64,000 bases of DNA, from assembly GCA_036398925.1 (NCBI GenBank), contig DASWOB010000022.1, positions 53,244 to 117,243 on the forward strand, written 5' to 3'. Shown piece after piece: positions 4,541 through 62,849 of the stretch (the first letter of the stretch is position 1; each line of letters begins with the position of its first letter). Both the position numbers and the translations under genes were made by a program. The DNA is from Thermoanaerobaculia bacterium. Lineage in GTDB: Bacteria; Acidobacteriota; Thermoanaerobaculia; Gp7-AA8. The notes beneath the pieces are model-generated. The model searched no databases. It was given only the letters and a program-made list of their open reading frames with translations, and was not told where the DNA came from.

Positions 4541-6067
4541 CTACAGCGGGATGTTGCCGTGTTTTTTCGGCGGGTTCTTGTCGCGTTTGTTGCGCAGCAT
4601 GGCGAACGTGGTGATCAGCTTGCGGCGGGTGAAACGCGGCTCGATGATCTCGTCGACGTAGCCACGCTCGGCGGCGATGTAGGGGTTGGCGAATTTCTCT
4701 TTGTACTCCGCGACCTTGGCCTCGCGATCGCTGGCACCGCGATAGAGGATGTTCACAGCCCCTTCGGCGCCCATAACGGCGATCTCGGCGGTCGGGTACG
4801 CGAAGTTCATGTCCGCGCGGATGTGCTTCGAGTTCATGACGCAGTACGCGCCGCCGTAGGCCTTGCGGGTGATGACCGTGACCTTCGGGACGGTTGCTTC
4901 GGCGAGCGAATAGAGCAGCTTTGCGCCATGAATGATGATGCCGCCGTACTCCTGCGCCGTTCCGGGCAGAAATCCCGGCACGTCTTCGAAGACCAGCAGC
5001 GGGATGTTGAAGGCGTCGCAGAAACGAACGAAGCGCGCGCCTTTGCGCGACGCGTCGATGTCGAGGACCCCCGCGAGAAAGGCGGGCTGGTTGGCGACGA
5101 TGCCGATCGACTGGCCGTTGAGGCGGATGAAGCCGACCACGATGTTACGGGCGTAGTGCTGGTGCACCTCGAGGAAGTGCGATTCGTCGGCGATTGTGGT
5201 GATCAGCTCGCGGATGTCGTACGGCTGGTTGGGGCTCTCGGGGATGAAGGAGTCGAGCTGGGTGTCGACGCGATTGACGTCGTCTTTGGTAGCAACGCGC
5301 GGCGCCTCCTCCATGTTGTTGGACGGCATGTAGGAGAGGAGCTCGCGAATCAGCGCGATGCAATCCTCGTCCGATTCGGCGGCGAAGCTGGCCACGCCCG
5401 AGACCTGGTTATGAGTGTCGGCGCCGCCGAGCTTTTCCTTCGTCACCTCTTCGTGCGTGACAGTCTTGATGACGTCTGGACCGGTGACGAACATGTAGCT
5501 CGTCTTTTTCACCATCAGGATGAAGTCGGTGATGGCGGGCGAATAAACGGCCCCGCCGGCGCACGGCCCCATGATCGCGGAGATCTGCGGTACGACGCCC
5601 GAGGCGAGCGTGTTGCGGAGGAAGATGTCGGCATAGCCGCCGAGGGAGACAACGCCCTCCTGGATGCGCGCGCCGCCTGAGTCGTTCAGGCCGACCACCG
5701 GCGCGCCGTTCTTCATCGCCAGATCCATGATCTTGACGATCTTCGCGGCGTGCGTTTCGGAGAGTGAACCGCCGAAGACCGTGAAGTCCTGCGCGAAGGC
5801 GTAGACCAGGCGGCCCTGAATCGTGCCGTAGCCGGTGATGACACCGTCGCCGGGGACGCGCTGTTTTTCGAGGCCAAAGTCGGTGGAGCGGTGGGTGACG
5901 AGCTGATCGAGCTCCTGGAACGAACCGGGATCGAAGAGGAGGCTGATGCGCTCGCGCGCGGTCAGTTTTCCTTCATTGTGCTGGCGGTCGATGCGGGCCT
6001 GACCGCCGCCCATCTCGCTTTCGGCTTTGCGGCGCTCGAGCTCTTGCAGTTTTTCTTCGCGTGACAT
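4541..6067 (-). CDS. pccB: Propionyl-CoA / acyl-CoA carboxylase carboxyltransferase (beta) subunit
   Basis: 508-aa ORF with full-length similarity to the PccB/AccD5 carboxyltransferase family. Motifs include [31 protein letters not shown] and [13 protein letters not shown]. Confidence 0.9.
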
Positions 6068-47458: not shown

Positions 47459-48442
47459 TCAGCCCTTGAGCCGCGACCGGGTGCGCGTACGGATGATCAC
47501 GCCGGTGAGGTTGAGCAGAAACGTCAGCGCCAGCAGCACGAACACCGTGCCGTAGAGCAGCGGCTTGGTCGCCTCGACGTCCGGCGACTGCGTCGAAAGA
47601 ATCAGCACGTGATAGCCGAGGTGCATGAACTGGTCGGTCACGTCGCCCGGCAGGTACGGCAGGTAGTACGCCGCGCCGGTGAAGAGGATCGGCGCGACCT
47701 CACCGGCACCGCGGGAGATGCCGAGGATGGCCCCGGTCAAAATGCCCGGCAGCGCACCCGGCAGCACCACCCGCCGGATCGTCTCCCACTGCGTCGCACC
47801 GAGCGCCAGCGACGCTTCGCGCAGATCGGCCGGAATGGTCCGCAACGCTTCCTCCGTCGCCACGATCACCGTCGGCAGCGTCAGCAGCGCCAGCGTGCAG
47901 GCGGCCCACAGCAGCGAGCCCTGTCCCCACAGCACCTCGCCCTGCGGCTGCGTCGCGCGATCGATGCTCCGTCCGATGAAGTTGATGAAGAAGCCGAGAC
48001 CGAAGAGGCCGAAGACGATCGACGGAACGCCCGCCAGGTTGGCCACGGCGCTGCGGGTGACGTTGGCCATCAGCGCCGAGACCGCGCGCAGGAAGAGCTT
48101 CTTCCGGTCGGGCCGCCCCTTCGACGCTTTGAAGCGGCTCCACGCGCGGCCGAAGCCTTCCGCCGGCGTGTATTCGTGCAGGTAGATCGCGGTCGCGACG
48201 CCGAGCGGCACCGCCGCCACCGTCATCAGCAGCACCAGCATCGCCGTGCCGACGATGGCCGGTCCGATCCCTCCCTCCGTCAGCCCCGCCCGCGGCGCCT
48301 CGGTGATGAAACTCCAGCTCACCGTGCGTGCGCCGTGCAGGACCACGTTGCCGAGGATCACCACCAGGATCGCCAGGATCAGCACGACGCTGAAGCCGAG
48401 CAGACCGATGGCCAGACGATCGGCGACACGACGGCTGGTCAT
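47459..48442 (-). CDS. pstA: Phosphate ABC transporter permease PstA
   Basis: 327-aa polytopic ORF with the EAA-like motif (EASLALGATQWETIRRVVLP) typical of PstA. Confidence 0.85.
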   Translation of the reverse strand: MTSRRVADRLAIGLLGFSVVLILAILVVILGNVVLHGARTVSWSFITEAPRAGLTEGGIGPAIVGTAMLVLLMTVAAVPLGVATAIYLHEYTPAEGFGRAWSRFKASKGRPDRKKLFLRAVSALMANVTRSAVANLAGVPSIVFGLFGLGFFINFIGRSIDRATQPQGEVLWGQGSLLWAACTLALLTLPTVIVATEEALRTIPADLREASLALGATQWETIRRVVLPGALPGILTGAILGISRGAGEVAPILFTGAAYYLPYLPGDVTDQFMHLGYHVLILSTQSPDVEATKPLLYGTVFVLLALTFLLNLTGVIIRTRTRSRLKG

Positions 48443-49377
48443 GACGCCCCCTGCATCCGTCCCTGCATCTTCCGGATGACCAGCTGGCCGAGGCTGTTGC
48501 TGATGAAGGTGATGACGAAGAGCAGCGTGCCCATGAAGAAGAGCGCGGAGTAGTGCGCGCTGCCGACCACCACCTCACCCATCTCCGCGGCGATCGTCGC
48601 GGAGAGCGTGCGCAGCGGATCGAGCAGCGACAGCGACGTGATGGCCGCGTTGCCGCCCGCCATCAGCAGGATCATCGTCTCGCCGATGGCCCGCCCGAAC
48701 GCGAGCACGAATGACGCGAAGACCGCCGGCGCCGCGGCCGGCAGCACGACGTTCCACGCGGTCTGGAACTTCGACGCGCCGAGGGCATACGACGCCTCCC
48801 GATACGAGCGCGGCACCGCCGCCAGTCCATCCTCGGAAATCGTGTAGACGATCGGCACGAGCGCGAAGCCGAGCGCCAGTCCCGCGTTGACGGCGTTCAG
48901 CCGATAGGTGAATCCGAACGCGTCCTGCAGCCACGTCGCCAGGACGATCAGCGCGAAGAAGCCCATCACCACCGAGGGGATGCCGGCCAGCAGCTCGATG
49001 ATCGGCTTGATCACCTCGCGCAGGCGAGGCGGCGCGAACTCGGAGGAAAAAAGCGCCGCCGCGACGCCGACCGGACAGGCGAAGAGGAGGCCGACCAGCG
49101 TCGCTTTCAGCGTGCCGAGGATGATCGGGATCAGCGAGACCTTCGGACGCTCCGAGGTCGGCTGCCAGACGTAGCGATCGGTGATGGTCGGCCCTTCCTG
49201 CGCCTCGACGAAGAAGGCCTCGAGGTTGGCCTCCTTCTTCACTTCCGGGTCGGTGAAGATCGGGATCGTCTCCTTGAACGTGAAGAGAAAGATCAGAAAG
49301 ATGAAGACGATCGCCACCCAGCCGGCGATCGAAAAGACGCCGGTCATCAGCGAGTTGAACGCGTAGCGACGCCTCAT
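48439..49377 (-). CDS. pstC: Phosphate ABC transporter permease PstC
   Basis: Likely start is the ATG at 49377, overlapping the pstS stop (ATGA): MRRRYAFNSLMTG... It is polytopic with the EAA-like EASYALGASKFQTAWNVVLP. Confidence 0.85.
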   Translation of the reverse strand: MRRRYAFNSLMTGVFSIAGWVAIVFIFLIFLFTFKETIPIFTDPEVKKEANLEAFFVEAQEGPTITDRYVWQPTSERPKVSLIPIILGTLKATLVGLLFACPVGVAAALFSSEFAPPRLREVIKPIIELLAGIPSVVMGFFALIVLATWLQDAFGFTYRLNAVNAGLALGFALVPIVYTISEDGLAAVPRSYREASYALGASKFQTAWNVVLPAAAPAVFASFVLAFGRAIGETMILLMAGGNAAITSLSLLDPLRTLSATIAAEMGEVVVGSAHYSALFFMGTLLFVITFISNSLGQLVIRKMQGRMQGAS

Positions 49378-50270
49378 TTGGTGGTGCTGAGAGGCTGTGT
49401 TGTAAGAGGAAAGTAGCCGACCTGCGTGACGAGCTTCTGCGCGTCCGGCGTGACCGCCCACTGCGCGAACTTCGTCACCCGCTCCGGCGCGTTGGCGGTG
49501 TAGTAGAAGAAGAGCTTGCGGCTGAGCGGATACGTCCCGTCCGCGACCGTCGACTCATTCGGCTCGACCGGCGCCTTGCCGCTGTCGGAGATACCGAGCG
49601 GGCGGACTTCCTTGGCGTAGGCGATGCCGCCATAACCGATGCCGTTCTTGTCCTGGCCGACCGCGTTGATGATGGCCGCGGTCCCCTGCAGCGTCTGCAC
49701 GCGCGGCGAAAAGTCTTCCTTCGCCAGGACGTGCTCGCGGAAGTAGTCGTACGTACCGGACGAGCTCTCGCGGCCGTAAAGCACGATCGGTGCGTTCGTC
49801 CCGCCGAGCTGCTGCCAGTTCGTGACCTTCCCCTGGAAGACGTCCTTCACCTGCGCGACGGTCAGCGTCCTGACCGGATTGGAGGCGTGCACGAACACCG
49901 CGAGGGCATCGAGCGCCACCGCGTGCTCGACCACCTCGGCGCCACGGCTCTTCGCCGCCTTCGCCTTCTCATCACCCTTCATCGGGCGCGACGACTGCGC
50001 GAGGTCGACTGTCCCGTTGATCAGCGCCGCGATCCCGGTGCCGCTGCCGCCCCCATTGACCTGCACCACCGTCCCGGCATTTGCCTTCATGTACTCCTCG
50101 GCCAGCCGCTGCCCGAGGATGACCATCGTGTCCGATCCCTTGATCGAAAGCGGCTTGCTGTTCCCGCCGCTCTTCGGCGCCGCACCATCGGAGCTCCTGC
50201 GCTCCCCCCCACCACACCCGACGGTGAGCACGAGCGCCGCTGTAAAGACAATTCGAGCCACAGAGTTCAT
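49374..50270 (-). CDS. pstS: Phosphate ABC transporter substrate-binding lipoprotein PstS
   Basis: 298-aa ORF with lipobox LTVGCGG. It has GSDT, NGGGSGTG and other PstS/PBP-like motifs. It is the first gene of the pst operon. Confidence 0.85.
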   Translation of the reverse strand: MNSVARIVFTAALVLTVGCGGGERRSSDGAAPKSGGNSKPLSIKGSDTMVILGQRLAEEYMKANAGTVVQVNGGGSGTGIAALINGTVDLAQSSRPMKGDEKAKAAKSRGAEVVEHAVALDALAVFVHASNPVRTLTVAQVKDVFQGKVTNWQQLGGTNAPIVLYGRESSSGTYDYFREHVLAKEDFSPRVQTLQGTAAIINAVGQDKNGIGYGGIAYAKEVRPLGISDSGKAPVEPNESTVADGTYPLSRKLFFYYTANAPERVTKFAQWAVTPDAQKLVTQVGYFPLTTQPLSTTK

Positions 50271-50314
50271 GCCCGCGAGGCTAAAGGGCGGGGGTGGAGG
50301 AGGGTGGCAGTACG

Positions 50315-50331
50315 TGTAAATTCGGTGTGAA
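50315..50331 (-). promoter_or_regulatory. Candidate Pho box (direct hexamer repeats TTCACA-N5-TTTACA, 11-bp phasing) upstream of pstS
   Basis: The minus-strand sequence about 45-60 nt upstream of the pstS ATG reads ttcacaccgaatttacacg. This resembles PhoP/PhoB-type direct-repeat boxes, TT(A/T/C)ACA with a 4-6 bp spacer. Confidence 0.4.
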
Positions 50332-50605
50332 GCGGGGCGGGGAGAGATGGACCGCGGCGGGCGGGTGGGCGTCGATCAGGCGGGCCATCGTTGCTCGTAG
50401 TGCCGTGACGGCCGCGGTGGCGGCCCCTTCGCCGGCGCGCAGGAGCTCGAATGCCGATTCGGCATCTTTGACGCATTTTTTAGTTGACACGACCACCCGA
50501 ATGGGCGCATTTATGCTGAATGTTAAAACAGACAAGCAGCGCGCCCGGAACTGAGGACCTCACAGAGATTGGGGGCCGCTCAGTCGTTCAGCTTGGCGGC
50601 TTTGC

Positions 50606-50815
50606 CCTTCAACTTTAAGGGCGAACGCTTAAAGTTGAAGAACGATCGCTTCAACTTTGAGAACGATCGCTTCAGTTTTAAGAACGATCGCTTCAACTTT
50701 AAGAACAATCGCTTCAACTTTAAGGACGATCGCTTCAACTTTAAGGGCGATCGCTTCAGTTTTAAGGGCGATCGCTTCAACTTTAAGGACGATCGCTTCA
50801 ACTTTAAGGACGATT
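50606..50815. repeat. About 10 tandem copies of a 21-bp repeat (CGATCGCTTCAACTTTAAGGA consensus), AT-richer than the genome
   Basis: 50606-50815 reads aacgcttaaagttgaag aacgatcgcttcaactttgag aacgatcgcttcagttttaag ... gacgatcgcttcaactttaag. Each unit contains the palindromic CGATCG and the imperfect palindrome CTTCAACTTTAAG. It lies in the divergent intergenic region between pstS and gene 50933..51418. Confidence 0.85.
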
Positions 50816-50932
50816 CGCCCGGATTGGAGGGGCGCGGCCGGGCACCACCGGCGTCGCCGACCCTTCCCTCACCTTCGAATCGCTGAAAGACCGAATGAAT
50901 CCAAGACAGAGAAAGAAAAAGGAGAAGAAATC

Positions 50933-51418
50933 ATGGCTACTACCACCCCGGTCACCTCCCCGCATGTCGAGGCCGCTAAAGAGCTCCTCGTGAAGATCCG
51001 TGCTCTGCGCACGGAGATCCCCCGGTTCGTTCTCGACGATCCGGCCGAAACCCAGTTCCTCGGCCGCATCGCTGCCGTCACCGAAGAGTTCATCGAGGCG
51101 GCCTGCGTTGCGCTCCAGCGTTCGGCACGCCTCGAAACGGCAGCCGGCGCGAATGCCACCGCGCTGCGTGACGCGTACAACTACGCGCTCGCGTATGAGG
51201 CGGTCGTCACCGAACTGCACGCGCTGACCCGCTGTATGACTCACACGATCCGCGTCCAGCGCGCCGCCGCGCGTGACGTCTACGTCCTCGCCAAGCGGAT
51301 CGCGAACAAGAAAGGGGGCGCCGAGCTGATCCCGCACGTCGCCGACATGCGCAAGAAGCTCAATAGTAAACGGCGCAAAGAGCCGAACAAGCCGGCCGAC
51401 GTGGCCGTGAAGGCGTAA
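50933..51418 (+). CDS. Hypothetical protein (161 aa)
   Basis: ATG at 50933 with SD aaaaaggag 8 nt upstream: MATTTPVTSPHVEAAKELLVKIRALRTEIPRFVLDD... The ORF-track start at 50657 translates the 21-bp repeats (RTIASTL heptads) and is rejected. Confidence 0.55.
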   Translation: MATTTPVTSPHVEAAKELLVKIRALRTEIPRFVLDDPAETQFLGRIAAVTEEFIEAACVALQRSARLETAAGANATALRDAYNYALAYEAVVTELHALTRCMTHTIRVQRAAARDVYVLAKRIANKKGGAELIPHVADMRKKLNSKRRKEPNKPADVAVKA

Positions 51419-51520
51419 GGTTTCCGGAGGGGCGGTGCTGCAGCGCTGTCCCTCCGATGTCGTTCACCCAAGGAGACGGGAGGACGAGGGGTGGGCCGAA
51501 GCCCACACCCCACCACACCG

Positions 51521-52273
51521 TCACGCCACGGCAGGCGCGCCGATCGGCACTTCCACCACCCGGAACGGCGGCCGGTCGGGATAGTGCGCCGCCAGCACCG
51601 GCATGGCGACGTTGTAGACCGGCGCGGCGTTCTTGGTGCGCCCTTCCGGGAAGCCTCGATGGGCGTGGCCGTGGAAGACGGCGTTGACGCGGTAGCGGTC
51701 CAGCGGCTCTTCGAGCCGGCTCGAGCCGAGGAAAGCGACGATCTCGAGCGGCTCCCCTTCGACCGTGGCCTGGATCGGCGAGTAGTGCAGCACGCCGATC
51801 TTCTGCGGCGTGCGCAGGCGGGCCAGCGCCGACTCGAGCTTCAGCGATTCGTTGATCGCCTCGTGCACGAAGTCCTTGATGATCTGCTCCCCCCACGCGC
51901 CGAGGGCGCGGCGGCCGAAACCGCCGGCGAAGCCCTTCACGCCGGCGAAGCCGACGCCGTGCAGCTCGTACGAGTCGCCGTCGAGCACGACCACACCGGC
52001 ATCGGTCAGGATCTGCGTCAGCTCTTTCTCTTTGTTCGATTCGAGGTCGTGATTGCCGAGGACGGCGATGGCGGGGATGCGCAGCGCGGTGGTGATCTCC
52101 TTCGCCAGGATCTTCCCCTCCTCGATGGTCCCGTAGTCGGTGAGGTCGCCGCAGAGCAGCAGCACGTCCGCCTCTTCGGTCACCTTCGCGAAGATCGGCT
52201 GCAAGGCCCCCTGGGAGGTCTTCTTGACGTGAATGTCGGCGATGGCGGCAATCCGTAGTGTGTCGCGATCCAT
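51521..52273 (-). CDS. Calcineurin-like metallophosphoesterase (YfcE/MJ0936-like phosphodiesterase)
   Basis: 250-aa ORF with MPP motifs in order: AIADIHV (D-x-H), LLCGDLTD (GD), VLGNHD (GNH[DE]), then GHAHRG. Confidence 0.8.
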   Translation of the reverse strand: MDRDTLRIAAIADIHVKKTSQGALQPIFAKVTEEADVLLLCGDLTDYGTIEEGKILAKEITTALRIPAIAVLGNHDLESNKEKELTQILTDAGVVVLDGDSYELHGVGFAGVKGFAGGFGRRALGAWGEQIIKDFVHEAINESLKLESALARLRTPQKIGVLHYSPIQATVEGEPLEIVAFLGSSRLEEPLDRYRVNAVFHGHAHRGFPEGRTKNAAPVYNVAMPVLAAHYPDRPPFRVVEVPIGAPAVA

Positions 52274-52298
52274 TGATTCGCTCCGTTGACCGAAGTCT

Positions 52299-53111
52299 CT
52301 ACTTCGCTCCGTCGATGGCGATCCCGGCGGTCCACTGCTCGATCTCGTCCTCGGACATCAGCTCATCGACGCGGCGCGCATCGGCGTAGCCCCACTCGTT
52401 GATGTCCTTGAGGTACTGCTGCCGCGAGATGACGGTGCCGTAGCAGATGCGGTCCTCGAGATTGCCTTCTCTCGTCTCGCGGGCCAGGCGCTGCGCGAGC
52501 TCGGTCAAGACCCAGCCCGGCACCTGCTCGCGATCGCTCGGATAGATGAAACCGTAGAGCACGAGGTGCGCGTAGAGCACGCGCCAGTAGCTGCCGTAAC
52601 GATCGATCAGCCGGCGCCAGTCGAGCTTCGCGCCGGTGGCGTGAATGACGTGGGCCACGTCGGCGCCGTCGAAGCGCTCGCGCTCGAAGATCAGCCCCTT
52701 CGACCAGATCATCTCCTCGGCCGGAATCAGCTCGACGTCGACGCCGAAGACGCGCTCCGGCACGGCGTTGTCGAACCAGACGTCGTCGACGCAGGCCACG
52801 CCATTGCCGGCGCTGAAGATCAGGTCGATGAAGTCATCGCCCTCGCCCCATGCCTTGCCGAGCCAGTGCGGAAAGGTCAGCTCGCTCTTGTAGCCGGCGC
52901 GGTGAAAGGCCCACGACGCGCGGCGAAAGTCCTCCCGCCGGATAAAGACGTCGAAATCTTTGGTGTGCCGCTCGATCCCGGTATAGCGCGCGAAGGCGTA
53001 CGCACCGCCGACCAGATGCGGTACGCCCGCATCCGTCAGTATCTTGAGCGCGTGCCGGTAAAACCGGATGCTCTTCTCGTCCAGCACCAGTTGCTGTGGG
53101 TTCGCTGCCAT
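52299..53111 (-). CDS. Pol-beta-superfamily nucleotidyltransferase-fold protein (minimal NTase, PF14907-like)
   Basis: 270-aa ORF. HLVGGAYAFARYTGIERHTKDFDVFI matches hG[GS]-x(9-13)-Dh[DE]h, and a third acidic motif DDFIDLIF lies downstream. It is co-oriented and 25 nt upstream of the metallophosphoesterase. Confidence 0.5.
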   Translation of the reverse strand: MAANPQQLVLDEKSIRFYRHALKILTDAGVPHLVGGAYAFARYTGIERHTKDFDVFIRREDFRRASWAFHRAGYKSELTFPHWLGKAWGEGDDFIDLIFSAGNGVACVDDVWFDNAVPERVFGVDVELIPAEEMIWSKGLIFERERFDGADVAHVIHATGAKLDWRRLIDRYGSYWRVLYAHLVLYGFIYPSDREQVPGWVLTELAQRLARETREGNLEDRICYGTVISRQQYLKDINEWGYADARRVDELMSEDEIEQWTAGIAIDGAK

Positions 53112-53221: not shown

Positions 53222-54073
53222 CTAGCCGCGCTTGCGCGCTTCATCAATGATGATCGGCGCGCTGACCGTCACCAGGCGGATGACCGGCACGGCCGTCCCG
53301 ATGCGCAGCACTTTCAGCTCGCGCAGGCCGCGGGAGGCGTCGCACGCCTTGAGGTTGCAGACGATGTCGCCGTCGCGCTCGGTGCGTGCTTCGAGGGCCG
53401 GGGGAGCTTTTCCGTCCTTCACCTTCAGCGCGATCGGGCCGTTCTGCGTGGCGGCCTCGATCTTCCCGGTCACGCGGTCGAGCGTCACGCCGCCGCTTTC
53501 GGTGGTGATCCGGAAGTCGCCGCTCGACTGGGCGATGGAGATGCCGCCGTTGGTGGCGCGCGCCGTGACCTTGCCGCTCATGTTGCGGATGGCGATACCG
53601 CCGTTCTGCGAGAGCACCTCGACCTCGGCCTTCTTCGGCACGTAGAGGATCATGTTCACCCACCAGACCTGGGTCTGGTCCATCGGCGGCCCCTGGACGG
53701 TGAGGTCGCCGTTGGCGAACGGCACGGAGATCGCGGTGAGCGCGCGCTGCGCCTGCGCCCTGGTCTGCGCGCCGGCGTACTTGCAGATCACCAGGCGGGC
53801 GAACGGTTTGTCCCAGCCGCGGATCGAGACGCCCCCTTCTTCACTGGCGCGGATCTTCAGCAGCTTGACGCCGGTGAGGGCCACCTCGCGCTGCTCCTGA
53901 TCGTGGACCTGCGCGGCGAACGAGGTGAAGGTGGTCTTGTAAAAGTGGTCGCAGTCGGTCGCCTCGGCAAGCGAGTGGTCCTGTTCTGCTCCGATGATCT
54001 GCCGCTGTAGCGCTCCCTCGGCGGGAAGGGCCAGCAACAGGACCGCGAGCGCGGTCAGCGCGAGTGATCTCAT
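53222..54073 (-). CDS. Secreted beta-rich protein (DUF4097-like putative adhesin repeats)
   Basis: 283-aa ORF with a signal peptide MRSLALTALAVLLLALPAEGA. Repeated G(G)I(S/A)I..(S/T)G.(V/I) strands (NGGIAIRNMSGKVTARATNGGISIAQSSGDFRITTESGGVTL) resemble DUF4097/DUF4098 beta-helix repeats. Confidence 0.4.
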   Translation of the reverse strand: MRSLALTALAVLLLALPAEGALQRQIIGAEQDHSLAEATDCDHFYKTTFTSFAAQVHDQEQREVALTGVKLLKIRASEEGGVSIRGWDKPFARLVICKYAGAQTRAQAQRALTAISVPFANGDLTVQGPPMDQTQVWWVNMILYVPKKAEVEVLSQNGGIAIRNMSGKVTARATNGGISIAQSSGDFRITTESGGVTLDRVTGKIEAATQNGPIALKVKDGKAPPALEARTERDGDIVCNLKACDASRGLRELKVLRIGTAVPVIRLVTVSAPIIIDEARKRG

Positions 54074-54386
54074 GCTCTGTTCACTACCACTACGGTTACG
54101 ACCGACATTCCGTTAGGTTTCGTTCCCGTTACGAAATTGGCGGCAGGTACGGTAGCGTCTGTGCGAAAGCCAGCAGCGCAGCAGCACCACCGGCGTGTGG
54201 AAGAGTAACTGAAAGCCGGCCGCCCTTCTCCACGAAGTGAGTGGCCGGTGCGGTGTGGGCTTCCAGCCCACCCCTCGTCGTTGCGCCGGAGACGTCGCGT
54301 CGTCAGGTGACGCGGGCACGACTGTCAGGTGGCAACGCCTGTGCACGCTGGGCCTTTCGCCGATTGAATTGGATGGAGGAGTATCG

Positions 54387-55553
54387 ATGGCAACAGCACA
54401 GCCGACGGTCGACCATGACGAGATTCGCGAATGGGTGGAGGCGCGCGGCGGGCATCCCGCGGCGGTGCGCGCAACCGGATCGGGCAACGACCCCGGCATC
54501 CTGCGCATCGATTTCCCCGGCTTTTCGGGCGAGGACACGCTCGAAGAGATCGAGTGGGAGGAGTTCTTCGACTGGTTCGAGAAGAACAACCTCGCGCTCC
54601 TGCTCTCCGATGAAGAGGGCAACCGCTTCAACAAGCTGGTGAGCCGCGAAGCGCTGGCCGGTGCGTCGTCGTCATCGAAGCGCGGCTCGCGCGGAGGCGG
54701 CGCGAAGAAAGCCTCGTCGAAGACGTCGAGCAGCGGTGCGAAAAAGGCGGGCAGCTCGCGCAGCATGAAGAAGGAGTCGTCGTTGTCATCGCGCGGTGGC
54801 GGCAGCAGGAAAGCCGCGGCATCGACCAGGAAGGCCGCCAGCTCGAAGAAGGCCTCGTCGTCGACGAAGAAGGCCTCCGGCGCCGGATCGACCAGGAAGG
54901 CCGCCCCGGCGAAGAAGGCCGCGTCTACCTCCTCGAAGAAGAGCTCCACCAGCGACAAGTCGCGCGGCACCACCGCCAAGAAGACTTCGGCTTCGACGAA
55001 GAAGGCCTCAGCCTCCACGAAGAAAGCGTCAGCCTCCTCGAAGAAAGCCTCGGCATCCTCGAAGAAAGCCGCGGGATCCTCCAGGAAAGCCGCGACCTCT
55101 TCGAAGAAGACCACCACCAGGAAGAGCACCTCCACGAAAACCGCCAGTGCCGCGTCGCGTGGCGGCAGCAAGAAAGCCACGAGCTCGACGAAGCGCGCCA
55201 GCGGCCCGATCTCGAGCGGCGGCCGCAAAGCATCGGGCGCCTCCTCGAAGAAAGCCTCCTCCTCGAAAGGATCTTCGAAGAAGAGCAGCGGCAGCTCCGT
55301 CACCACCACCAACCACGACGAGATCCGCAACTGGGTCGAAGCGCGCGGCGGCTTCCCCGCGCACGTGAAACGCACCGGCTCGCGCCGCGGCGATCTCGGC
55401 GTGCTGCGCATCGACTACCCCGGCTTCTCCGGCACCGACACGCTGGAGCGGATCGACTGGGAGGAGTGGTTCGCCGCGTTCGACCGGAACAAGCTGGCCT
55501 TCCTCTACCAGGACAAACGCAACTCCCGGTTCTCGAAGCTGGTGGCACGCTAG
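54387..55553 (+). CDS. Protein with two copies of an about 75-aa conserved domain flanking an about 230-aa histone-H1-like Lys/Ser/Ala-rich linker
   Basis: ATG at 54387 with SD ggagga 8 nt upstream. N-terminal domain: TVDHDEIREWVEARGGHPAAVRATGSGNDPGILRIDFPGFSGEDTLEEIEWEEFFDWFEKNNLALLLSDEEGNRFNKLVSRE. C-terminal domain: TTNHDEIRNWVEARGGFPAHVKRTGSRRGDLGVLRIDYPGFSGTDTLERIDWEEWFAAFDRNKLAFLYQDKRNSRFSKLVAR. The linker is (KKAS/STKKASA)n. The ORF-track start at 54237 is an upstream extension. Confidence 0.6.
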   Translation: MATAQPTVDHDEIREWVEARGGHPAAVRATGSGNDPGILRIDFPGFSGEDTLEEIEWEEFFDWFEKNNLALLLSDEEGNRFNKLVSREALAGASSSSKRGSRGGGAKKASSKTSSSGAKKAGSSRSMKKESSLSSRGGGSRKAAASTRKAASSKKASSSTKKASGAGSTRKAAPAKKAASTSSKKSSTSDKSRGTTAKKTSASTKKASASTKKASASSKKASASSKKAAGSSRKAATSSKKTTTRKSTSTKTASAASRGGSKKATSSTKRASGPISSGGRKASGASSKKASSSKGSSKKSSGSSVTTTNHDEIRNWVEARGGFPAHVKRTGSRRGDLGVLRIDYPGFSGTDTLERIDWEEWFAAFDRNKLAFLYQDKRNSRFSKLVAR

Positions 55554-55562
55554 ACTCGGCTC

Positions 55563-58508
55563 GTGAGCCGCGAGTTCCACCGCTACGACGCAGTTCCTTT
55601 CCCGCACGCTGAGCGGCCGGTCGCGGAGCGCTTCGAGCACCGCGACCGGCTGCAGGATCTGTCGATCGATGCCGGGGCGCTGGCCGAGGCGCTGCGCCGC
55701 GCCATTCGCGGCGAGGTGCGCTTCGACGATGGCTCGCGCGCGCTCTACGCCACCGACGCCTCCAACTACCGCCAGGTGCCGATCGGCGTGGTCATGCCGC
55801 GCGATGCGGCCGACGTCATCGCCACCGTGGCCCTGGCCCGCCAGCATGGCGCGCCGATCCTCGGACGCGGCGCGGGCACCAGCCTGGCCGGCCAGTGCTG
55901 CAACGTGGCGGTGGTGCTCGACATGTCGAAGTACATGCACTCGATCGTCGAGATGAACCCGGCCGGCAGGTTCGCGCGCGTCGAGCCGGGCATCGTCCTG
56001 GACGACCTGCGCCGCGAGGCGGAGCGCCACACGCTGACCTTCGCTCCCGATCCGGCCACCCACGCGCAGTGCACCCTCGGCGGCATGATCGGCAACAACT
56101 CCTGCGGCATCCACTCGATCATGTCGGGCAAGACCGTCGACAACATCGAGGAGCTCGAGATCCTGACGTACGACGGCATCCGCATGCGCGTCGGCCCGAC
56201 CACCGACGGCGAGCTCGCGCGGATCATTTCCGAAGGTGGCCGGCGCGGTGAGATCTACCGCGGGCTGGCCGGCATCCGTGACAAATACGCGGAGCTGATC
56301 CGCGCAAAGTTCCCGCGCATCCCGCGCCGCGTCTCCGGCTACAACCTCGACGAGCTGCTGCCGGAGAACGGCTTCCACGTGGCGCGCTCGCTGGTCGGCA
56401 GCGAGTCGACCTGCGCGCTGGTCCTCGAGGCGAAGACGAAGCTCGTCTACAGCCCCCCCGCGCGCACGCTGCTGGTCCTCGCCTACCCGTCCGTCTACGA
56501 CGCGGCCGACGACGTGCCGCGCGTGCTCGGCTTCGGTCCGATCGGCCTGGAAGGCTTCGACGACCTCCTCGTGCGCGACCAGAAGTACAAGAACATGAAC
56601 CCGCACGGCATCGCTCTGCTCCCGCCGGGCGGCGGCTGGCTGCTGGTGGAGTTCGGCGGCGAGACGCTCGCGGAGTCGACCGAGAAAGCGCAGCGCCTCG
56701 CCTCGTCGATGGCCGCCACGCGCACGCGCCTGTTCGACAACAACTCGAAAGAGGCCCGCTTCGTCTGGGCCGTCCGCGAGTCCGGTCTCGGCGCCACCGG
56801 GCACGTCCCGGGCAAGCCGCTGATGTGGGAAGGGTGGGAGGACGCGGCGGTCGCGCCGGAGAAGCTCGGCGGCTACCTGCGCGACCTTCGCCAGCTGCTC
56901 GACCGCTATCAGTACGGCGGCGATTTCTACGGCCACTTCGGCGACGGTTGCGTGCACACGCGCACGAACTTCGACCTCACCAGCGATCCGGGCATCGCGA
57001 AGTTCCGCGCCTTCATCAACGACGCCGCCGATCTGGTCGCGTCGTACGGCGGGTCGTTCTCCGGCGAGCATGGCGACGGTCAGGCGCGCGCCGCCCTGCT
57101 GGAAAAGATGTTCGGCCCCGAGCTGATGGAGGCCTTCCGCGAGTTCAAGTCGCTCTGGGATCCGGAGTGGAAGATGAACCCGGGGAAGCTGATCACCCCG
57201 TACGAGCCGGACGAGAACCTCCGCCTCGGCAGCAAATACGCGCCGTGGAATCCGAAGACCCACTTTGCGTACGCCGAGGATCACGGCCGGATGAACCACG
57301 CCGTCCTGCGCTGCGTGGGTGTGGGACGCTGCCGCCGGCTCGACGGCGGAACGATGTGCCCGAGCTACCAGGTCACGCGGGAAGAAGAACACTCGACCCG
57401 CGGCAGGGCGCGCCTTCTCTTCGAGATGTTCGAGGGGAAAGTGACGCCGGCCACCTGGAGGAACGAGGCGGTCAAGGACGCGCTCGACCTATGCCTGGCC
57501 TGCAAAGGGTGCAAAGGCGACTGCCCGACCCAGGTCGACATGGCCACCTACAAGGCCGAGTTCATGTCGCACTACTACAAACGGCGCCTGCGGCCGATCC
57601 AGGCCTACACCATGGGGCAGATCCACTTCTGGGCCGGCATCGCCTCGAAAGTGCCGCGCCTCGCCAACGTGATGATGTCGCTGCCGTTCGCGAACACGTT
57701 CGCCGGCGTGGCCAAAGAGCGGAAAATGCCCCGCTTCGCCCGGGCAACCTTCGTCGAACAGTTCACCCCCCGCGCCGTCAAGCCGGGAGCGAAGCGGGTC
57801 GTGCTCTGGCCCGACACCTTCAACAATCACTTCCTGCCGAAGACCGCGCACGCCGCGGCGTCGGCCCTCGAGGAAGCGGGTTACGCGGTCGAGCTGCCGG
57901 CGACGAAGAAGCGCCTCTGCTGCGGCCGGCCGCTCTACGACTGGGGTTTTCTCGATCAGGCCAAACGGCTGCTGCGCGAGACCATGGACGCGCTCCGGCC
58001 GCAGCTCGATCTCGGGCTGCCGATCGTGGGGCTGGAGCCGAGCTGCGTCTCGACGTTTCGTGATGAACTGCCGAACCTCTTCCCGAAAGACGAATACGCG
58101 AAGAAGCTCGCCGCCTCGGCCATGACCCTCTCCGAGTTCATCGCCCGCGAGGGCGACGCCTTCCCGCTGCCGTCGCTCGCGAAGAAAGCGATCGTCCAGG
58201 CGCACTGCCATCACAAGGCGGTGATGCGCTTCGACGCGGAGGAGGCCATCCTGCGGCGGATGGGGCTCGACCTCGATCATCCCGATTCCGGCTGCTGCGG
58301 GATGGCGGGGGCGTTCGGCTTCGCGGCGGAGCACTACGACCTCTCGATGAAGCTCGGCGAGCGGGTCATCCTGCCGATGGTGCGGGAGGCCCCGCCCGAG
58401 ACGCTGATCCTCGCCAACGGCTTTTCCTGCCGCGAGCAGATCGAGCAGGGGAGCGGACGAGAGACGCTGCACTTCGCGGAAGTGCTGAAGATGGCGTACG
58501 AGCAGTGA
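55563..58508 (+). CDS. FAD-linked oxidase fused to an Fe-S (GlcF/CCG-type) domain; YdiJ/D-2-hydroxyacid dehydrogenase-like
   Basis: 981-aa ORF. The N-terminal FAD_binding_4 domain has PIGVVMPRDAADV, PILGRGAGTSLAGQ and GGMIGNNSCG. The middle has a 4Fe-4S cysteine cluster (CLACKGCKGDCP, CVGVGRCRR). The C-terminal has two CCG-like domains (CCGRPL, CCGMAGAFG). The architecture is that of E. coli YdiJ. Confidence 0.8.
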   Translation: MSREFHRYDAVPFPHAERPVAERFEHRDRLQDLSIDAGALAEALRRAIRGEVRFDDGSRALYATDASNYRQVPIGVVMPRDAADVIATVALARQHGAPILGRGAGTSLAGQCCNVAVVLDMSKYMHSIVEMNPAGRFARVEPGIVLDDLRREAERHTLTFAPDPATHAQCTLGGMIGNNSCGIHSIMSGKTVDNIEELEILTYDGIRMRVGPTTDGELARIISEGGRRGEIYRGLAGIRDKYAELIRAKFPRIPRRVSGYNLDELLPENGFHVARSLVGSESTCALVLEAKTKLVYSPPARTLLVLAYPSVYDAADDVPRVLGFGPIGLEGFDDLLVRDQKYKNMNPHGIALLPPGGGWLLVEFGGETLAESTEKAQRLASSMAATRTRLFDNNSKEARFVWAVRESGLGATGHVPGKPLMWEGWEDAAVAPEKLGGYLRDLRQLLDRYQYGGDFYGHFGDGCVHTRTNFDLTSDPGIAKFRAFINDAADLVASYGGSFSGEHGDGQARAALLEKMFGPELMEAFREFKSLWDPEWKMNPGKLITPYEPDENLRLGSKYAPWNPKTHFAYAEDHGRMNHAVLRCVGVGRCRRLDGGTMCPSYQVTREEEHSTRGRARLLFEMFEGKVTPATWRNEAVKDALDLCLACKGCKGDCPTQVDMATYKAEFMSHYYKRRLRPIQAYTMGQIHFWAGIASKVPRLANVMMSLPFANTFAGVAKERKMPRFARATFVEQFTPRAVKPGAKRVVLWPDTFNNHFLPKTAHAAASALEEAGYAVELPATKKRLCCGRPLYDWGFLDQAKRLLRETMDALRPQLDLGLPIVGLEPSCVSTFRDELPNLFPKDEYAKKLAASAMTLSEFIAREGDAFPLPSLAKKAIVQAHCHHKAVMRFDAEEAILRRMGLDLDHPDSGCCGMAGAFGFAAEHYDLSMKLGERVILPMVREAPPETLILANGFSCREQIEQGSGRETLHFAEVLKMAYEQ

Positions 58509-58599
58509 CCGGATGGGCCCGATTCACCGCACGCCGCGAGCTGGTTTTTGCGCTTGGCGGAAAGCGGGCCGATGCTGGCCACGCGGGTGTGAGGTTCTC

Positions 58600-58665
58600 A
58601 GCGTTCCTCGGGGTTCCTCGGGTCCGGGTTCCGCCGAGGAACCGAGGAGCTCCGAGGAACCGACG
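58600..58665. repeat. Convergent-gene hairpin built from tandem nonamers: (GTTCCTCGG)x3 versus (CCGAGGAAC)x3
   Basis: gcgttcctcggggttcctcgggtccgggttccgccgaggaaccgaggagctccgaggaaccgacgaacc lies between the YdiJ-like stop (58508) and the KGG protein stop (58675). Confidence 0.75.
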
Positions 58666-58674
58666 AACCGGCTC

Positions 58675-59091
58675 TTACGCTCTGTCGCGATTCGAGAGCG
58701 TGTTGTTGTCGTTCGTGTTCTCGCGATCGCGCTCGCGGTTCCCGGACGACGAGAAGCCGCCGCCGTTGCGCTCGAAGGCACTCCGCTCCTCGTTGATTTC
58801 GCGCACGAACGGCTGGCCGCCCGTGTTCTGCGCGACGTCGTTGCCGCCGCCGCTGCTGCCGGCCGCACGGGCACGTGCGCCGCGGCTGTGGCCACCTTCG
58901 CGGCCGATCGCGGCCATGTGCGCGCGATCCCGGCTCACCGCCTCGCCGCCTTTGCGGCCGGCTACGCGAGCCTCTTCCGAAGTGAACTCGTGAGCCGTAC
59001 CTTTCGCGTGAGCGGCGCGTCCGCCTTTGCTCGCAATCTCACGCTGCTTGTTCGGATCCATCGACGCAAAACCGCGCTTGCTGGTTGCCAT
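58675..59091 (-). CDS. KGG-repeat general stress protein (YciG/Con-10-like)
   Basis: ATG at 59091 with SD aaggag: MATSKRGFASMDPNKQREIASKGGRAAHAKGTAHEFTSEEARVAGRKGGEA...IGREGGHSRG. It has repeated KGG/EGG stress-protein motifs and a Gly/Asn-rich tail. The ORF-track 5' extension is junk. Confidence 0.7.
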   Translation of the reverse strand: MATSKRGFASMDPNKQREIASKGGRAAHAKGTAHEFTSEEARVAGRKGGEAVSRDRAHMAAIGREGGHSRGARARAAGSSGGGNDVAQNTGGQPFVREINEERSAFERNGGGFSSSGNRERDRENTNDNNTLSNRDRA

Positions 59092-59173
59092 GAAGTGTCT
59101 CCTTCCGGGGTTGAATGAAGCAGTACCGTGTCCCTCACCGTACTTGCGTTTGCGAGTTATATGGACCAGCACG

Positions 59174-60906: not shown

Positions 60907-61254
60907 TCAGCGGCGTAGGGTGGCGAACAACTGCTCGTTGTTGAACGGCTTGAGCAGCGTCCGGCAGTCGTCCGGGTCGTCGTTTTCGCCCTCGTCGAGC
61001 TCCGGGCTGGTCATGATGATGACTTTCTGGATCTCCTCCGGCTGATGTTCGTGCAGGAAGTGCATCACCGGATCGCTGCGGATCGGCAGACGCGGCGCGA
61101 GGAGGATCGCCTCGTACTGGTGGTCCTGCAGCATCCCGATCGCGGCCTCCGCCGTCGGCGCCGTTTCGCACGAGTACTCCCGGCGGGCGAGGGTCGCCGC
61201 AATTGCCGAGCAGAGGTCGGCGTACTCTTCGACCACGAGGACGGTTGGGCTCAT
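60907..61254 (-). CDS. Single-domain response regulator (CheY-like receiver)
   Basis: 115-aa ORF MSPTVLVVEEYADLCSAIAATL... Acidic pocket residues and the phospho-acceptor Asp are in ILLAPRLPI context. A conserved Lys is near KPF. Confidence 0.65.
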   Translation of the reverse strand: MSPTVLVVEEYADLCSAIAATLARREYSCETAPTAEAAIGMLQDHQYEAILLAPRLPIRSDPVMHFLHEHQPEEIQKVIIMTSPELDEGENDDPDDCRTLLKPFNNEQLFATLRR

Positions 61255-61292
61255 TTTTTGAGGGAACTACCGATTCTGTGTAAGAAGACGTG

Positions 61293-62849
61293 CTAGAGAG
61301 ACGCCGAATTCCGCGGCTGGAAGCGCGTCAGCAGGTTCTCAATGTCGCGCACGTCAGCCGGCTTGGTCAGATGCTCGTCGAATCCCGCTTCGATCGCGCG
61401 CCGTTTGTCCTCCGGCTGTCCGAAGCCGCTGACCGCCACGAGGATCACCCCGGCGCCGACCTGCTCGCGCACCTGACGCGCCACTTCGTAGCCGTCGATG
61501 CCCGGCAGGCCGAGGTCGATCAGGGCCAGATCGGGTTTCGTCTCGAGCACCACCCGCACCCCTTCGAGACCATCCGCCGCGTCGAACACTTCATGCCCGA
61601 GCCGGTGGAGCTTGAGACGCAGCAGGTCGCGAACGTCCTTGTTGTCCTCGACGATCGCCACTTTGCGCGTTGCCGACGGCGTGTTCGTCGCCTCCGGCCG
61701 CGCGAAGCTGGCTGCATCGCGGCGCTGTTCCTCGGTCGCGAGTGGCATCCGCACCGCGAATTCGCTGCCCCGGCCGACGCCGTCGCTCTTCGCCTCCACC
61801 TCGCCCTCGTGCAGCTCGACCAGATTGCGCACCAGCGCGAGCCCGATGCCCATGCCGCCCTGCGCGCGGCCGATGGCGTTCTCCGCCTGCGCGAACAGCT
61901 CGAAGATGCCGCCGATCCGCTCCGGCGCGATGCCGACGCCGTCGTCAGTGACGCGGATGATCGCGTGCTCGCCGTCGCAGGAGACCACCAGCGTGACGTG
62001 TCCGTTTTCCGGCGTGTACTTGATGGCGTTGCCGAGAATGTTCGTCACGATCTGTTCGACGCGCACCGGATCGGCGTAAACCAGCACCGGCGGATCGCAC
62101 AGCTTCACCGCCAGCTGGATCCGTTGCATCTGGAGCGCGGGCGTGATGGTGTGCACCGACTGCTTGACCAGATCGAGCAGGTCCAGGGTCTGCCGTTTGA
62201 GCACGATCTTGCCCGCGGCGACGCGCGAGAGGTCGAGGAGGTCGTTCACCAGGCGGGTGAGATGGCGCGACTGCCGCTCGATGAGCTGCGCCTGGTCCGC
62301 CGGCAGCCGTCCGTCGTCGTCGGTCATCTGCGCGCCGAGCAGGATCGCGCCGAGCGGATTGCGCAGCTCGTGTCCGAGGACAGCCAGGAAGCGATCGCGC
62401 TCGTGGATGCGCTCCTCGAGCTGCACCATCAGATCGCGCACGTCGTACTGCCGCTCGCGCGCGCGGAGCACCGACTGCGCGGTGCTGATCAGCGAGCGGA
62501 TGCGCACCGGCCGGTCGATGAGCGTCACGTTGGTGCGGTGCAGGATCGAATCGAGCGAGTGGGTGTTGTTCTCGAGGCTGAGCGAGCCGCTGAGGATCAT
62601 CAGCGGGATCTCGGACCACGCCGGCTGCTGCGAGAGGACGCGGGTCAGCTCACGCGCTCCTTCCGGCGTCAGGGCTTCCTCCGTGACCAGGATCGCACCC
62701 ACTCCCGCGGCCACCCCCTCCGCCACTCCGCTGACATCCTTGCGGACCTCGCACTCCATGCCGGCCGCCTGCAGCTTGCTGCACATCAGGTCAGCGTCGC
62801 GGCCGATGGGAGCGACGATCAGAATCTTTCGGGGACGGTTGGTGATCAC
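61293..62849 (-). CDS. Hybrid sensor histidine kinase (N-terminal receiver-like domain, HisKA, HATPase_c, C-terminal receiver)
   Basis: 518-aa ORF with the H box LGHELRNPLGAIL. N and G boxes: NILGNAIKYT, DDGVGIAPE and GMGIGLAL. The C-terminal REC has VAIVEDNKDVRDLL...LALIDLGLPGIDG. Its start overlaps the KaiC stop (ATGA). Confidence 0.8.
   Translation of the reverse strand: MITNRPRKILIVAPIGRDADLMCSKLQAAGMECEVRKDVSGVAEGVAAGVGAILVTEEALTPEGARELTRVLSQQPAWSEIPLMILSGSLSLENNTHSLDSILHRTNVTLIDRPVRIRSLISTAQSVLRARERQYDVRDLMVQLEERIHERDRFLAVLGHELRNPLGAILLGAQMTDDDGRLPADQAQLIERQSRHLTRLVNDLLDLSRVAAGKIVLKRQTLDLLDLVKQSVHTITPALQMQRIQLAVKLCDPPVLVYADPVRVEQIVTNILGNAIKYTPENGHVTLVVSCDGEHAIIRVTDDGVGIAPERIGGIFELFAQAENAIGRAQGGMGIGLALVRNLVELHEGEVEAKSDGVGRGSEFAVRMPLATEEQRRDAASFARPEATNTPSATRKVAIVEDNKDVRDLLRLKLHRLGHEVFDAADGLEGVRVVLETKPDLALIDLGLPGIDGYEVARQVREQVGAGVILVAVSGFGQPEDKRRAIEAGFDEHLTKPADVRDIENLLTRFQPRNSASL

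Follow-up and report, generated by a model that had tools for sequence, protein, structure and literature searches.

A two-headed protein of Thermoanaerobaculia with a strongly basic linker, and its widespread head family: a possible stress-induced binder of the nucleoid or another polyanion

The window analyzed here, a 64,000-nucleotide stretch of an assembled Thermoanaerobaculia genome (GCA_036398925.1, contig DASWOB010000022.1), carries on its plus strand, at 54387-55553, an open reading frame (ORF) of 388 codons (its stop codon lies within these coordinates) whose product consists of two copies of a conserved domain, hereafter the head, joined by a long and highly basic linker (Table 1). 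The two heads aligned with 51 of 82 residues identical (62%; BLASTP E value, 1e-36). A hidden Markov model (HMM) of the head family, built as the profile of alignment A1, scored 159 and 137 bits against the two copies, matching end to end with the family motifs DH...IR.W, G.LR.DF, W..FF..F, and SRF.K. The initial annotation of this gene, made from the DNA letters alone, had described two copies of a domain of about 75 residues preceded by a strong Shine-Dalgarno sequence; the duplication and the Shine-Dalgarno sequence were borne out, and the domain proved to be about 85 residues long.

Architecture and conservation of the two-headed protein

The linker is dominated by serine (69 of its 216 residues, 32%), lysine (44, 20%), and alanine (40, 18%), followed by glycine (22), threonine (20), and arginine (13). 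With merely 2 acidic residues, it has a net charge of +55 and a pI of 12; proline is nearly absent (2 residues, ~1%), and the repeat unit is KKAS(A/S)S(T/S). A 230-residue basic linker of K, S, A, and T, like histone H1 or AlgP, had been proposed initially: its basic, low-complexity character stood, but the length had to be corrected, and the likeness to H1 and AlgP held for charge alone, the linker being Ser-rich and near Pro-free. The tandem K-P-A-A/A-A-K-P repeats, rich in Lys, Ala, and Pro, of AlgP/H1-type tails were not found in the linker, and the window protein gave no match to HC2 (Pfam PF07382) at E ≤ 1, hence none at its gathering score.

Low-complexity DNA of this kind raises the question of whether the linker, or even the entire ORF, is an artefact of assembly or of a spurious ORF call in G+C-rich DNA. 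The opposite strand also carries an ORF, of 432 amino acids (aa), and a crude gene caller based on third-position G+C content (GC3) initially chose that one. Nonetheless, there is in-frame homology to a conserved family at both ends of the ORF, and the frame stays open through 216 codons before running back into a conserved domain. The DNA repeats of the linker are short and imperfect (period of 21 nucleotides [nt], 4 to 5 copies, 80 to 83% matches), and there are therefore no long identical repeats able to mislead an assembler. Finally, the same architecture was recovered from 16 independent assemblies. An assembly artefact in the linker, the outcome that would have overturned the initial annotation, is thus effectively refuted by recurrence, imperfect repeats, and open frame, and the probability of an artefact of either kind is practically negligible.

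The comparison drew on a scan of a one-genome-per-species collection with a strict motif, in which 469 stretches encoded the domain. The plan of head, basic linker, and head was found in 16 Thermoanaerobaculia loci, the window included, with linkers of 56 to 384 aa, all of them rich in S, K, A, and G and carrying charges of +21 to +70 (0.17 to 0.38 per residue). In 14 of these 16 loci the heads were asymmetric in charge, the N-terminal one at -5 to -12 and the C-terminal one at -1 to +8. Across the 16 genomes, N-terminal heads shared 80% identity with one another and C-terminal heads 76%, versus 61% between N- and C-terminal heads, and the duplication is therefore older than the divergence of these genomes; judging from these sequences, both copies are maintained by selection in Thermoanaerobaculia. 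Species of Sorangium, including So ce56, have an independent two-head form in which both heads are acidic and the linker (76 to 128 aa) is of mixed charge. The two-head form thus arose twice independently, which suggests that bivalency is useful.

Table 1. Features of the window in and around the gene for the two-headed protein
Feature	Coordinates	Strand	Basis
Coding sequence, two-domain protein of 388 aa	54387..55553	+	ORF and sequence; frame confirmed by two family-HMM matches; orthologue N-termini share MATAQ(P/A)T(T/V)DHD
N-terminal head, aa 1-88	54387..54650	+	739 homologues; AlphaFold2 pLDDT 85; acidic, net charge -12, pI 4.4
Linker, 216 aa, disordered-type, S/K/A/G/T	54651..55298	+	Composition, net charge +55; imperfect 21-nt repeats
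C-terminal head, aa 305-388	55299..55550	+	62% identity to N-terminal copy; slightly basic, net charge +3
Shine-Dalgarno sequence GGAGGAG, 5 nt 5' of ATG	54375..54381	+	Direct reading of sequence
Sigma-54-type -24/-12 element TGGCAACGCCTGTGCA, GG-N10-GC spacing	54330..54345	+	Consensus match; conserved in related loci
Conserved block ACGGTTACG-N11-GTTAGGTTTCG	54092..54122		Window and 6 orthologous loci; variable distance to target ATG
Inverted repeat TTTCGT-N7-ACGAAA	54118..54136		Overlaps end of conserved block
FAD-linked oxidase, 981 aa, 4Fe-4S and CCG domains	55563..58508	+	Pfam matches; start 9 nt past stop codon of the two-headed protein
KGG-repeat general-stress protein gene (YciG/GsiB type), convergent with oxidase	58681..59091	-	tblastn, 75% identity to neighbour in related locus L009, which matches PF10685

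A widespread head family and its fusion partners

The head follows the consensus T-x-DH-x-x-IR-x-W-x-E-x-RGG-x-PA-x-V ... G-x-LRIDFPG-x-SG ... W-x-x-FF-x-x-F ... LAFLYQ ... SRFNKLV-x-R, and 17 columns were invariant among 40 aligned sequences. The HMM was searched exhaustively against 1.84 billion representatives of clusters at 50% identity, of which 2,966 matched at E ≤ 1e-3, with 1,747 of them reaching E ≤ 1e-10. Hosts included Acidobacteriota (Thermoanaerobaculia, Blastocatellia, and Pyrinomonadaceae), Myxococcota (Sorangium, Enhygromyxa, and Byssovorax), Alpha- and Gammaproteobacteria, Acidithiobacillia, Gemmatimonadota, Planctomycetota, Verrucomicrobiota, Chloroflexota, cyanobacteria, Actinomycetota (Rhodococcus and Nonomuraea), and, among the Archaea, haloarchaea. 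Many members are a stand-alone form of ~90 residues.

That the family is undescribed, as the initial annotation held, was upheld. Searched whole and one head at a time, the protein gave no match above threshold in Pfam, NCBIfam, PHROG, or PADLOC, so that the terminal domain taken alone likewise found nothing in these libraries; the window protein also did not match Lsr2 (PF23359, the DNA-binding or dimerisation domain). The Protein Data Bank (PDB) held neither a sequence nor a fold match for the head, the profile search returning chance-level acylphosphatase matches (E 0.3), and a literature search by accession numbers found nothing. Public names are either "hypothetical" or mutually contradictory, as in the automatic names of Q92U58, A9FQ61, WP_012234601, and A0A2S9YM65. 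We rejected "1,4-alpha-glucan branching enzyme," "lipocalin family," and "DNA nickase," as the head carries none of the matching Pfam domains: the first name may stem from adjoining glycogen/trehalose genes, Lipocalin gave weak matches in just 2 of the 148 best family representatives surveyed below, and the third name tracks a fused hemerythrin domain.

AlphaFold2 modelled the N-terminal head of the window protein as strand-helix-strand-strand-strand-helix-strand-strand, with a predicted local distance difference test score (pLDDT) of 85. In a tandem relative (P0133) the individual domains were also confident (pLDDT 91), at an overall predicted template modelling score (pTM) of 0.56. When the two halves of the head were compared by hhalign, internal duplication was not significant (E 0.16).

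One local similarity recurred. Membership in Prim-Pol (PF09250) calls for the gathering score (22.8 bits) over a domain of roughly 158 positions, and the window protein reached 20.7 bits over model positions 29-78 only. Sub-threshold matches were found in 42 of the 148 representatives in a constant register, head residues ~5 to 57 against model positions ~24 to 78, and the shared segment reads ATTD..IR.WW...ANIGI.TG..SGlvVlDVD..G..SL. By hhalign, the family aligned to a purpose-built Prim-Pol alignment with 66% probability (E 5.7e-5) over 48 columns, or half of the head. The catalytic motifs were not reproduced: D42 aligns with the first Asp of DxD, Pro stands in place of the second, and the part of the domain with motifs II (sxH) and III (hD) has no counterpart in the head. 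Primases were absent from the lists returned by the fold searches. The likeness is a hint of remote ancestry and not of membership.

The 148 representatives were surveyed for fusions by Pfam scan and by inspection of their non-domain parts, and the extra sequence was mostly a basic low-complexity S/R/A/T/K tail, located C-terminally, N-terminally, or between heads. Partners of a nucleic-acid-binding type comprised HHH_3 (a ComEA-type helix-hairpin-helix [HhH]; 7 of the 148), Rho_N (6), and HC2 (8), the last arising through low-complexity tails; relatives that reach the HC2 profile have KKAS/KKPAA tails, P0011 being one of them. Weak matches to Lsr2_DNA-bd, possibly inside the head, occurred in 2 representatives. 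Stress-type partners comprised hemerythrin (8), DUF892 (a YciE/YciF-like ferritin fold; 4), and CBS (1), and a lamin-tail domain was found once. Individual fusions with hemerythrin (in some cases across an S/R-rich spacer), DUF892, paired CBS domains, ComEA-type HhH, and lamin-tail were seen in loci L039, L040, L027, L058, and L037 and in proteins P0192, P0139, P0138, and P0140. Two family genes adjoin each other at positions 4696-5495 of locus L026, in an Acidobacteria metagenome-assembled genome (MAG; QHVT01000005), one encoding a divergent 84-aa head and the other a 166-aa protein in which the head bears a classical AKKKPAAKK histone-H1-type tail.

Stress regulation in relatives and genomic context of the window gene

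The initial annotation had also called the product a possible stress protein, and for relatives this was supported by RpoE2 induction, EcfG-type promoters, and stress-type neighbours. SMb21454 of Sinorhizobium meliloti (pSymB 1381823-1382137) gave a 97-bit match over the full length of the family profile, and we tied it to published data through the genome coordinates in the supplement. Overexpression of the general-stress sigma factor RpoE2 raised its transcript by a log2 of 3.10 (~8-fold; adjusted P, 2.6e-17), together with that of SMb21452, a "putative chaperone," and of the hypothetical genes SMb21469 to SMb21471 (Lang et al. 2018, PMC6180224, supplementary file 2). With several neighbours of SMb21454 also raised by RpoE2, the surrounding part of pSymB has the appearance of a stress island. 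SMb21454, an 89-aa protein, shares its 90%-identity cluster with DUF763 proteins of 425 aa that are encoded by the upstream gene, seemingly a quirk of clustering or gene calling and no real fusion.

The published EcfG consensus is GGAAC-N16-CGTT (PMC3892343) or GGAAC-N17-20-GTT (PMC6599016). An EcfG-type GGAAC-N16/17-NGTT lay 51 to 68 nt 5' of the start codon of family members in Rhizobium leguminosarum, Tistrella mobilis, and Aminobacter aminovorans, and in R. etli the motif preceded a two-gene operon that holds a family member; its background frequency was 0.23 per kb per strand. Neighbouring genes were of the sort found in stress or dormancy islands. Ku and LigD lay divergently in Tistrella and Aminobacter (Ku also in one further proteobacterial MAG); a Geminicoccaceae strain had a ferritin-like gene 42 nt upstream; Tistrella, Thermithiobacillus, and Enhygromyxa shared a YdaD-like short-chain dehydrogenase; in Ensifer/Sinorhizobium the neighbours were BON, a response regulator, glgA, UdgX, and treZ; and a haloarchaeon had trehalose-6-phosphate synthase.

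The window gene itself is preceded by a 313-nt intergenic region that separates it from a divergent DUF4097 gene (53222-54073, minus strand). The sigma-54 promoter consensus is TGGCAC-N5-TTGCW, and just upstream of the gene TGGCAACGCCTGTGCA presents the GG of the -24 region and the GC of the -12 region at the exact GG-N10-GC spacing; it is the sole TGGCA-N7-TGCA in the 64-kb window. Of 28 related loci, 20 had an equivalent element 28 to 57 nt 5' of the ATG, with unconserved flanks, and TGGCAACGCCTGTGCA is a putative functional promoter by virtue of this match to the consensus. Eleven loci (L014-L018, L021-L025, and L028) had the element starting merely 28 to 30 nt 5' of the ATG, so that their predicted transcript would have little or no 5' leader; ~20 additional bases, which hold a Shine-Dalgarno sequence, are present in the window, L009-L013, and L020.

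Farther upstream, a conserved block lies 19 nt from the DUF4097 start codon, and in seven loci, the window included, it adjoins the start of the divergent gene. Its two direct repeats read GGTT(A/T)CG, and it is a candidate for a site bound by a regulator or for part of a 5' leader. The inverted repeat pointed out initially (N6, at about 54140) does exist, though with a spacer of N7 and at a slightly different position (Table 1), and its conservation across orthologous loci is partial: it occurs as such in the window alone, with related TTTCG...CGAAA forms in 2 other loci. The main regulatory feature would appear to be the conserved sigma-54-type element rather than the inverted repeat. An Rfam scan of 53900-55700 gave chance-level matches only, a scan for sigma-70 promoters found none, and terminator-like matches were dismissed because they lie on the opposite strand within the linker repeats.

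Downstream, the gene for the FAD-linked oxidase was immediately adjacent in 20 Thermoanaerobaculia loci; with loci included in which it was at most two genes away, the number rose to 23, the window counted. Given this recurrent adjacency and the 9-nt gap, an operon with the oxidase is likely in Thermoanaerobaculia. The linkage was confined to this one class, and members in other phyla have unrelated neighbours. Homologues of the KGG-repeat gene were found within two or three genes in 13 related Thermoanaerobaculia loci; in the window, plus-strand ORFs at 58505-58993 and 58513-59118 overlap the stretch of the KGG gene and are probably spurious. The upstream stretch 47459-53111 contains genes for a periplasmic phosphate ABC transporter protein (49377-50270), probable pst permeases, a calcineurin-like metallophosphoesterase (51521-52273), and a weakly NTP_transf_5-like protein (52299-53111). 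About 5 kb downstream, at 60910-62849 on the minus strand, lie genes for a hybrid histidine kinase (HisKA, HATPase_c, and receiver) and a single-domain response regulator.

Possible functions and comparison with known systems

We put at about even odds (a probability of roughly 0.5) that the product of the window gene is induced by stress and binds the nucleoid or some other polyanion. The main argument is the repeated, independent joining of the head to varied modules that bind nucleic acids non-specifically, which suggests action on DNA or another polyanion. The basic linker, the fusions to HHH_3 and Rho_N, the weak Lsr2_DNA-bd matches, and the basic tails point only indirectly to nucleoid association. 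The very basic, disordered linker would bind a polyanion non-specifically, chromosomal DNA being the likeliest and RNA or polyphosphate possible, and the two heads would contribute a second binding or sensing activity, one at each end, to give a bivalent protein that, in stressed or dormant cells, would coat, bridge, or condense its target. Transcription would begin at the sigma-54-type promoter and run on into the oxidase gene. The nucleoid as target, polyanion binding, use of the promoter, and the roles of the heads are all what we infer.

Several observations weigh against this reading. Polyanion binding is a prediction for every member of the family. The head is acidic (median net charge of -6 across the family) and therefore unlikely, by charge, to be a DNA binder; it probably contributes something else. 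No fixed packing of one head on the other was predicted in the tandem P0133 model (pTM 0.56), so that partner-mediated bridging would be likelier than self-dimerisation. The linker, Ser-rich and almost Pro-free, is unlike the tails of H1, AlgP, and Hc1. The evidence for stress comes from distant single-head relatives, and to our knowledge the EcfG system is absent from the host of the window, an acidobacterium. The sigma-54-type element is a consensus match only, the window holds no GAFTGA-containing ORF that could encode a sigma-54 activator (enhancer-binding protein), and the probable, conserved co-transcription with the oxidase is left unexplained. RNA is also a known target of basic disordered regions (PhaF, PMC12818456), and such regions can be directed to polyphosphate granules (AlgP, PMC9239181).

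This last point opens the way to an alternative in which the linker binds RNA, ribosomes, or polyphosphate granules instead of DNA. The composition of the linker does not distinguish among polyanions, Rho_N fusions would suit RNA equally, and both targets have precedents, in the disordered RNA-binding region of the translation activator PhaF (PMC12818456) and in the spacing of polyphosphate granules by AlgP (PMC9239181). In the window, an operon for phosphate uptake (pst) and a gene for a metallophosphoesterase are found 2 to 5 kb upstream, but pst genes are not among the recurring neighbours of related loci, and the ComEA-type HHH_3 fusions and the Ku/LigD neighbours indicate DNA; we hold this alternative to be unlikely, though well worth keeping in mind. 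The Ku/LigD neighbours enter differently into a second proposal, in which the head derives from the N-terminus of Prim-Pol and acts as a repair accessory with Ku/LigD in non-homologous end joining, two heads tethering two DNA ends or complexes. It draws on the 42 of 148 sub-threshold matches in one register, on the 66% hhalign probability, and on Ku next door in Tistrella, Aminobacter, and one proteobacterial MAG (with LigD in two of these), as well as on the membership of Ku in EcfG regulons. That shared stress-regulon membership would itself account for the adjacency, however, which was seen in 3 of ~100 loci, and neither ku nor ligD was among the genes noted close by, whether in the window or in the Thermoanaerobaculia loci. 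With a similarity that spans half of the head, a Pro in place of the second Asp of DxD, and motifs II and III absent, a repair role of this kind seems improbable.

The charge pattern admits yet another explanation, a protective hydrophilin or condensate scaffold, like late embryogenesis abundant (LEA) proteins or tardigrade Dsup, in which acidic head and basic linker would form coacervates without a specific partner. The block charges of -12, +55, and +3 are mostly kept across orthologues, linker length varies freely (56 to 384 aa) while composition is kept, desiccation or stress genes (KGG, trehalose, BON) lie nearby, and the linker presumably resembles Dsup in composition. The head, however, is strongly conserved, with its 17 invariant positions in 40 sequences, and many family members have no tail; the conserved function therefore sits in the folded head, and we give the scaffold explanation a rather small chance. 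As for the oxidase, the 9 nt between the genes and the immediate adjacency in 20 loci would also fit a protein that serves as partner, chaperone, or regulator of this Fe-S enzyme, but a linkage limited to one class, with unrelated neighbours elsewhere, makes that very unlikely.

If the stress-induced, polyanion-binding protein that we favour were combined with the hint of primase ancestry, the family could make up a novel class of chromatin or dormancy factors in bacteria and haloarchaea, in which a primase-derived head would recognise a DNA feature or a repair partner such as Ku/LigD and the two-headed form of Thermoanaerobaculia with its Dsup-like Ser/Lys linker would shield and condense the chromosome under sigma-54-controlled stress. 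This is a speculative extension that we think doubtful. Whatever its function, the head is present in ~3,000 clusters (50% identity) from more than 10 bacterial phyla and from haloarchaea, yet it is unannotated and has neither a solved structure nor a detectable fold relative. One member, SMb21454, is clearly RpoE2-induced in a model rhizobium, and the combination of head, exchangeable DNA-binding modules, and di-iron stress domains offers a hypothesis for some "hypothetical" general-stress proteins. Tractable hosts for its study include S. meliloti (SMb21454), Rhizobium, and Sorangium.

Among known systems, AlgP and PhaF of Pseudomonas and PhaM of Ralstonia similarly couple a folded module to a long K/A-rich, polyanion-binding basic region (PMC9239181, PMC12818456) and are linked to starvation or storage physiology. 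Their tails are Pro-rich and of KPAA/AAKP type, however, whereas the window linker is 32% Ser and ~1% Pro; their folded module is unrelated, and their basic region is terminal instead of lying between two heads. Chlamydial Hc1 and Hc2 (PF07382) share a K/A-rich basic composition but have no equivalent of the head, and the HC2 matches of relatives reflect low complexity. Lsr2 and H-NS also combine a conserved module with a separate, exchangeable DNA-binding part, but no homology of the head to their oligomerisation domains was detected, and the Lsr2-like PHROG match was weak (E 0.029) and fell on the first helix of the head. With Prim-Pol (PF09250) the head shares a local profile similarity, which is sub-threshold, covers half of the head, and lacks the catalytic residues and any structural match. 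SMb21454 resembles alphaproteobacterial proteins of the EcfG/RpoE2 regulon in its induction, and family members resemble them in their EcfG-type promoters and typical regulon neighbours, whereas the window gene bears a sigma-54-type element instead.

Dps and Ku with lysine-rich tails are likewise DNA-associated in stress or dormancy, their folded domain aided by a basic tail (PMC3553676), and the fusions of relatives to di-iron domains (hemerythrin and DUF892) recall the logic of Dps; both are unrelated to the head in sequence and fold, however, and the window protein has no ferritin-like domain. A folded module with a basic tail, induced under stress, is thus already known, and what is new is the head family and the plan of head, linker, and head, a very basic linker between two folded heads being an arrangement unmatched among the basic-tail proteins compared here.

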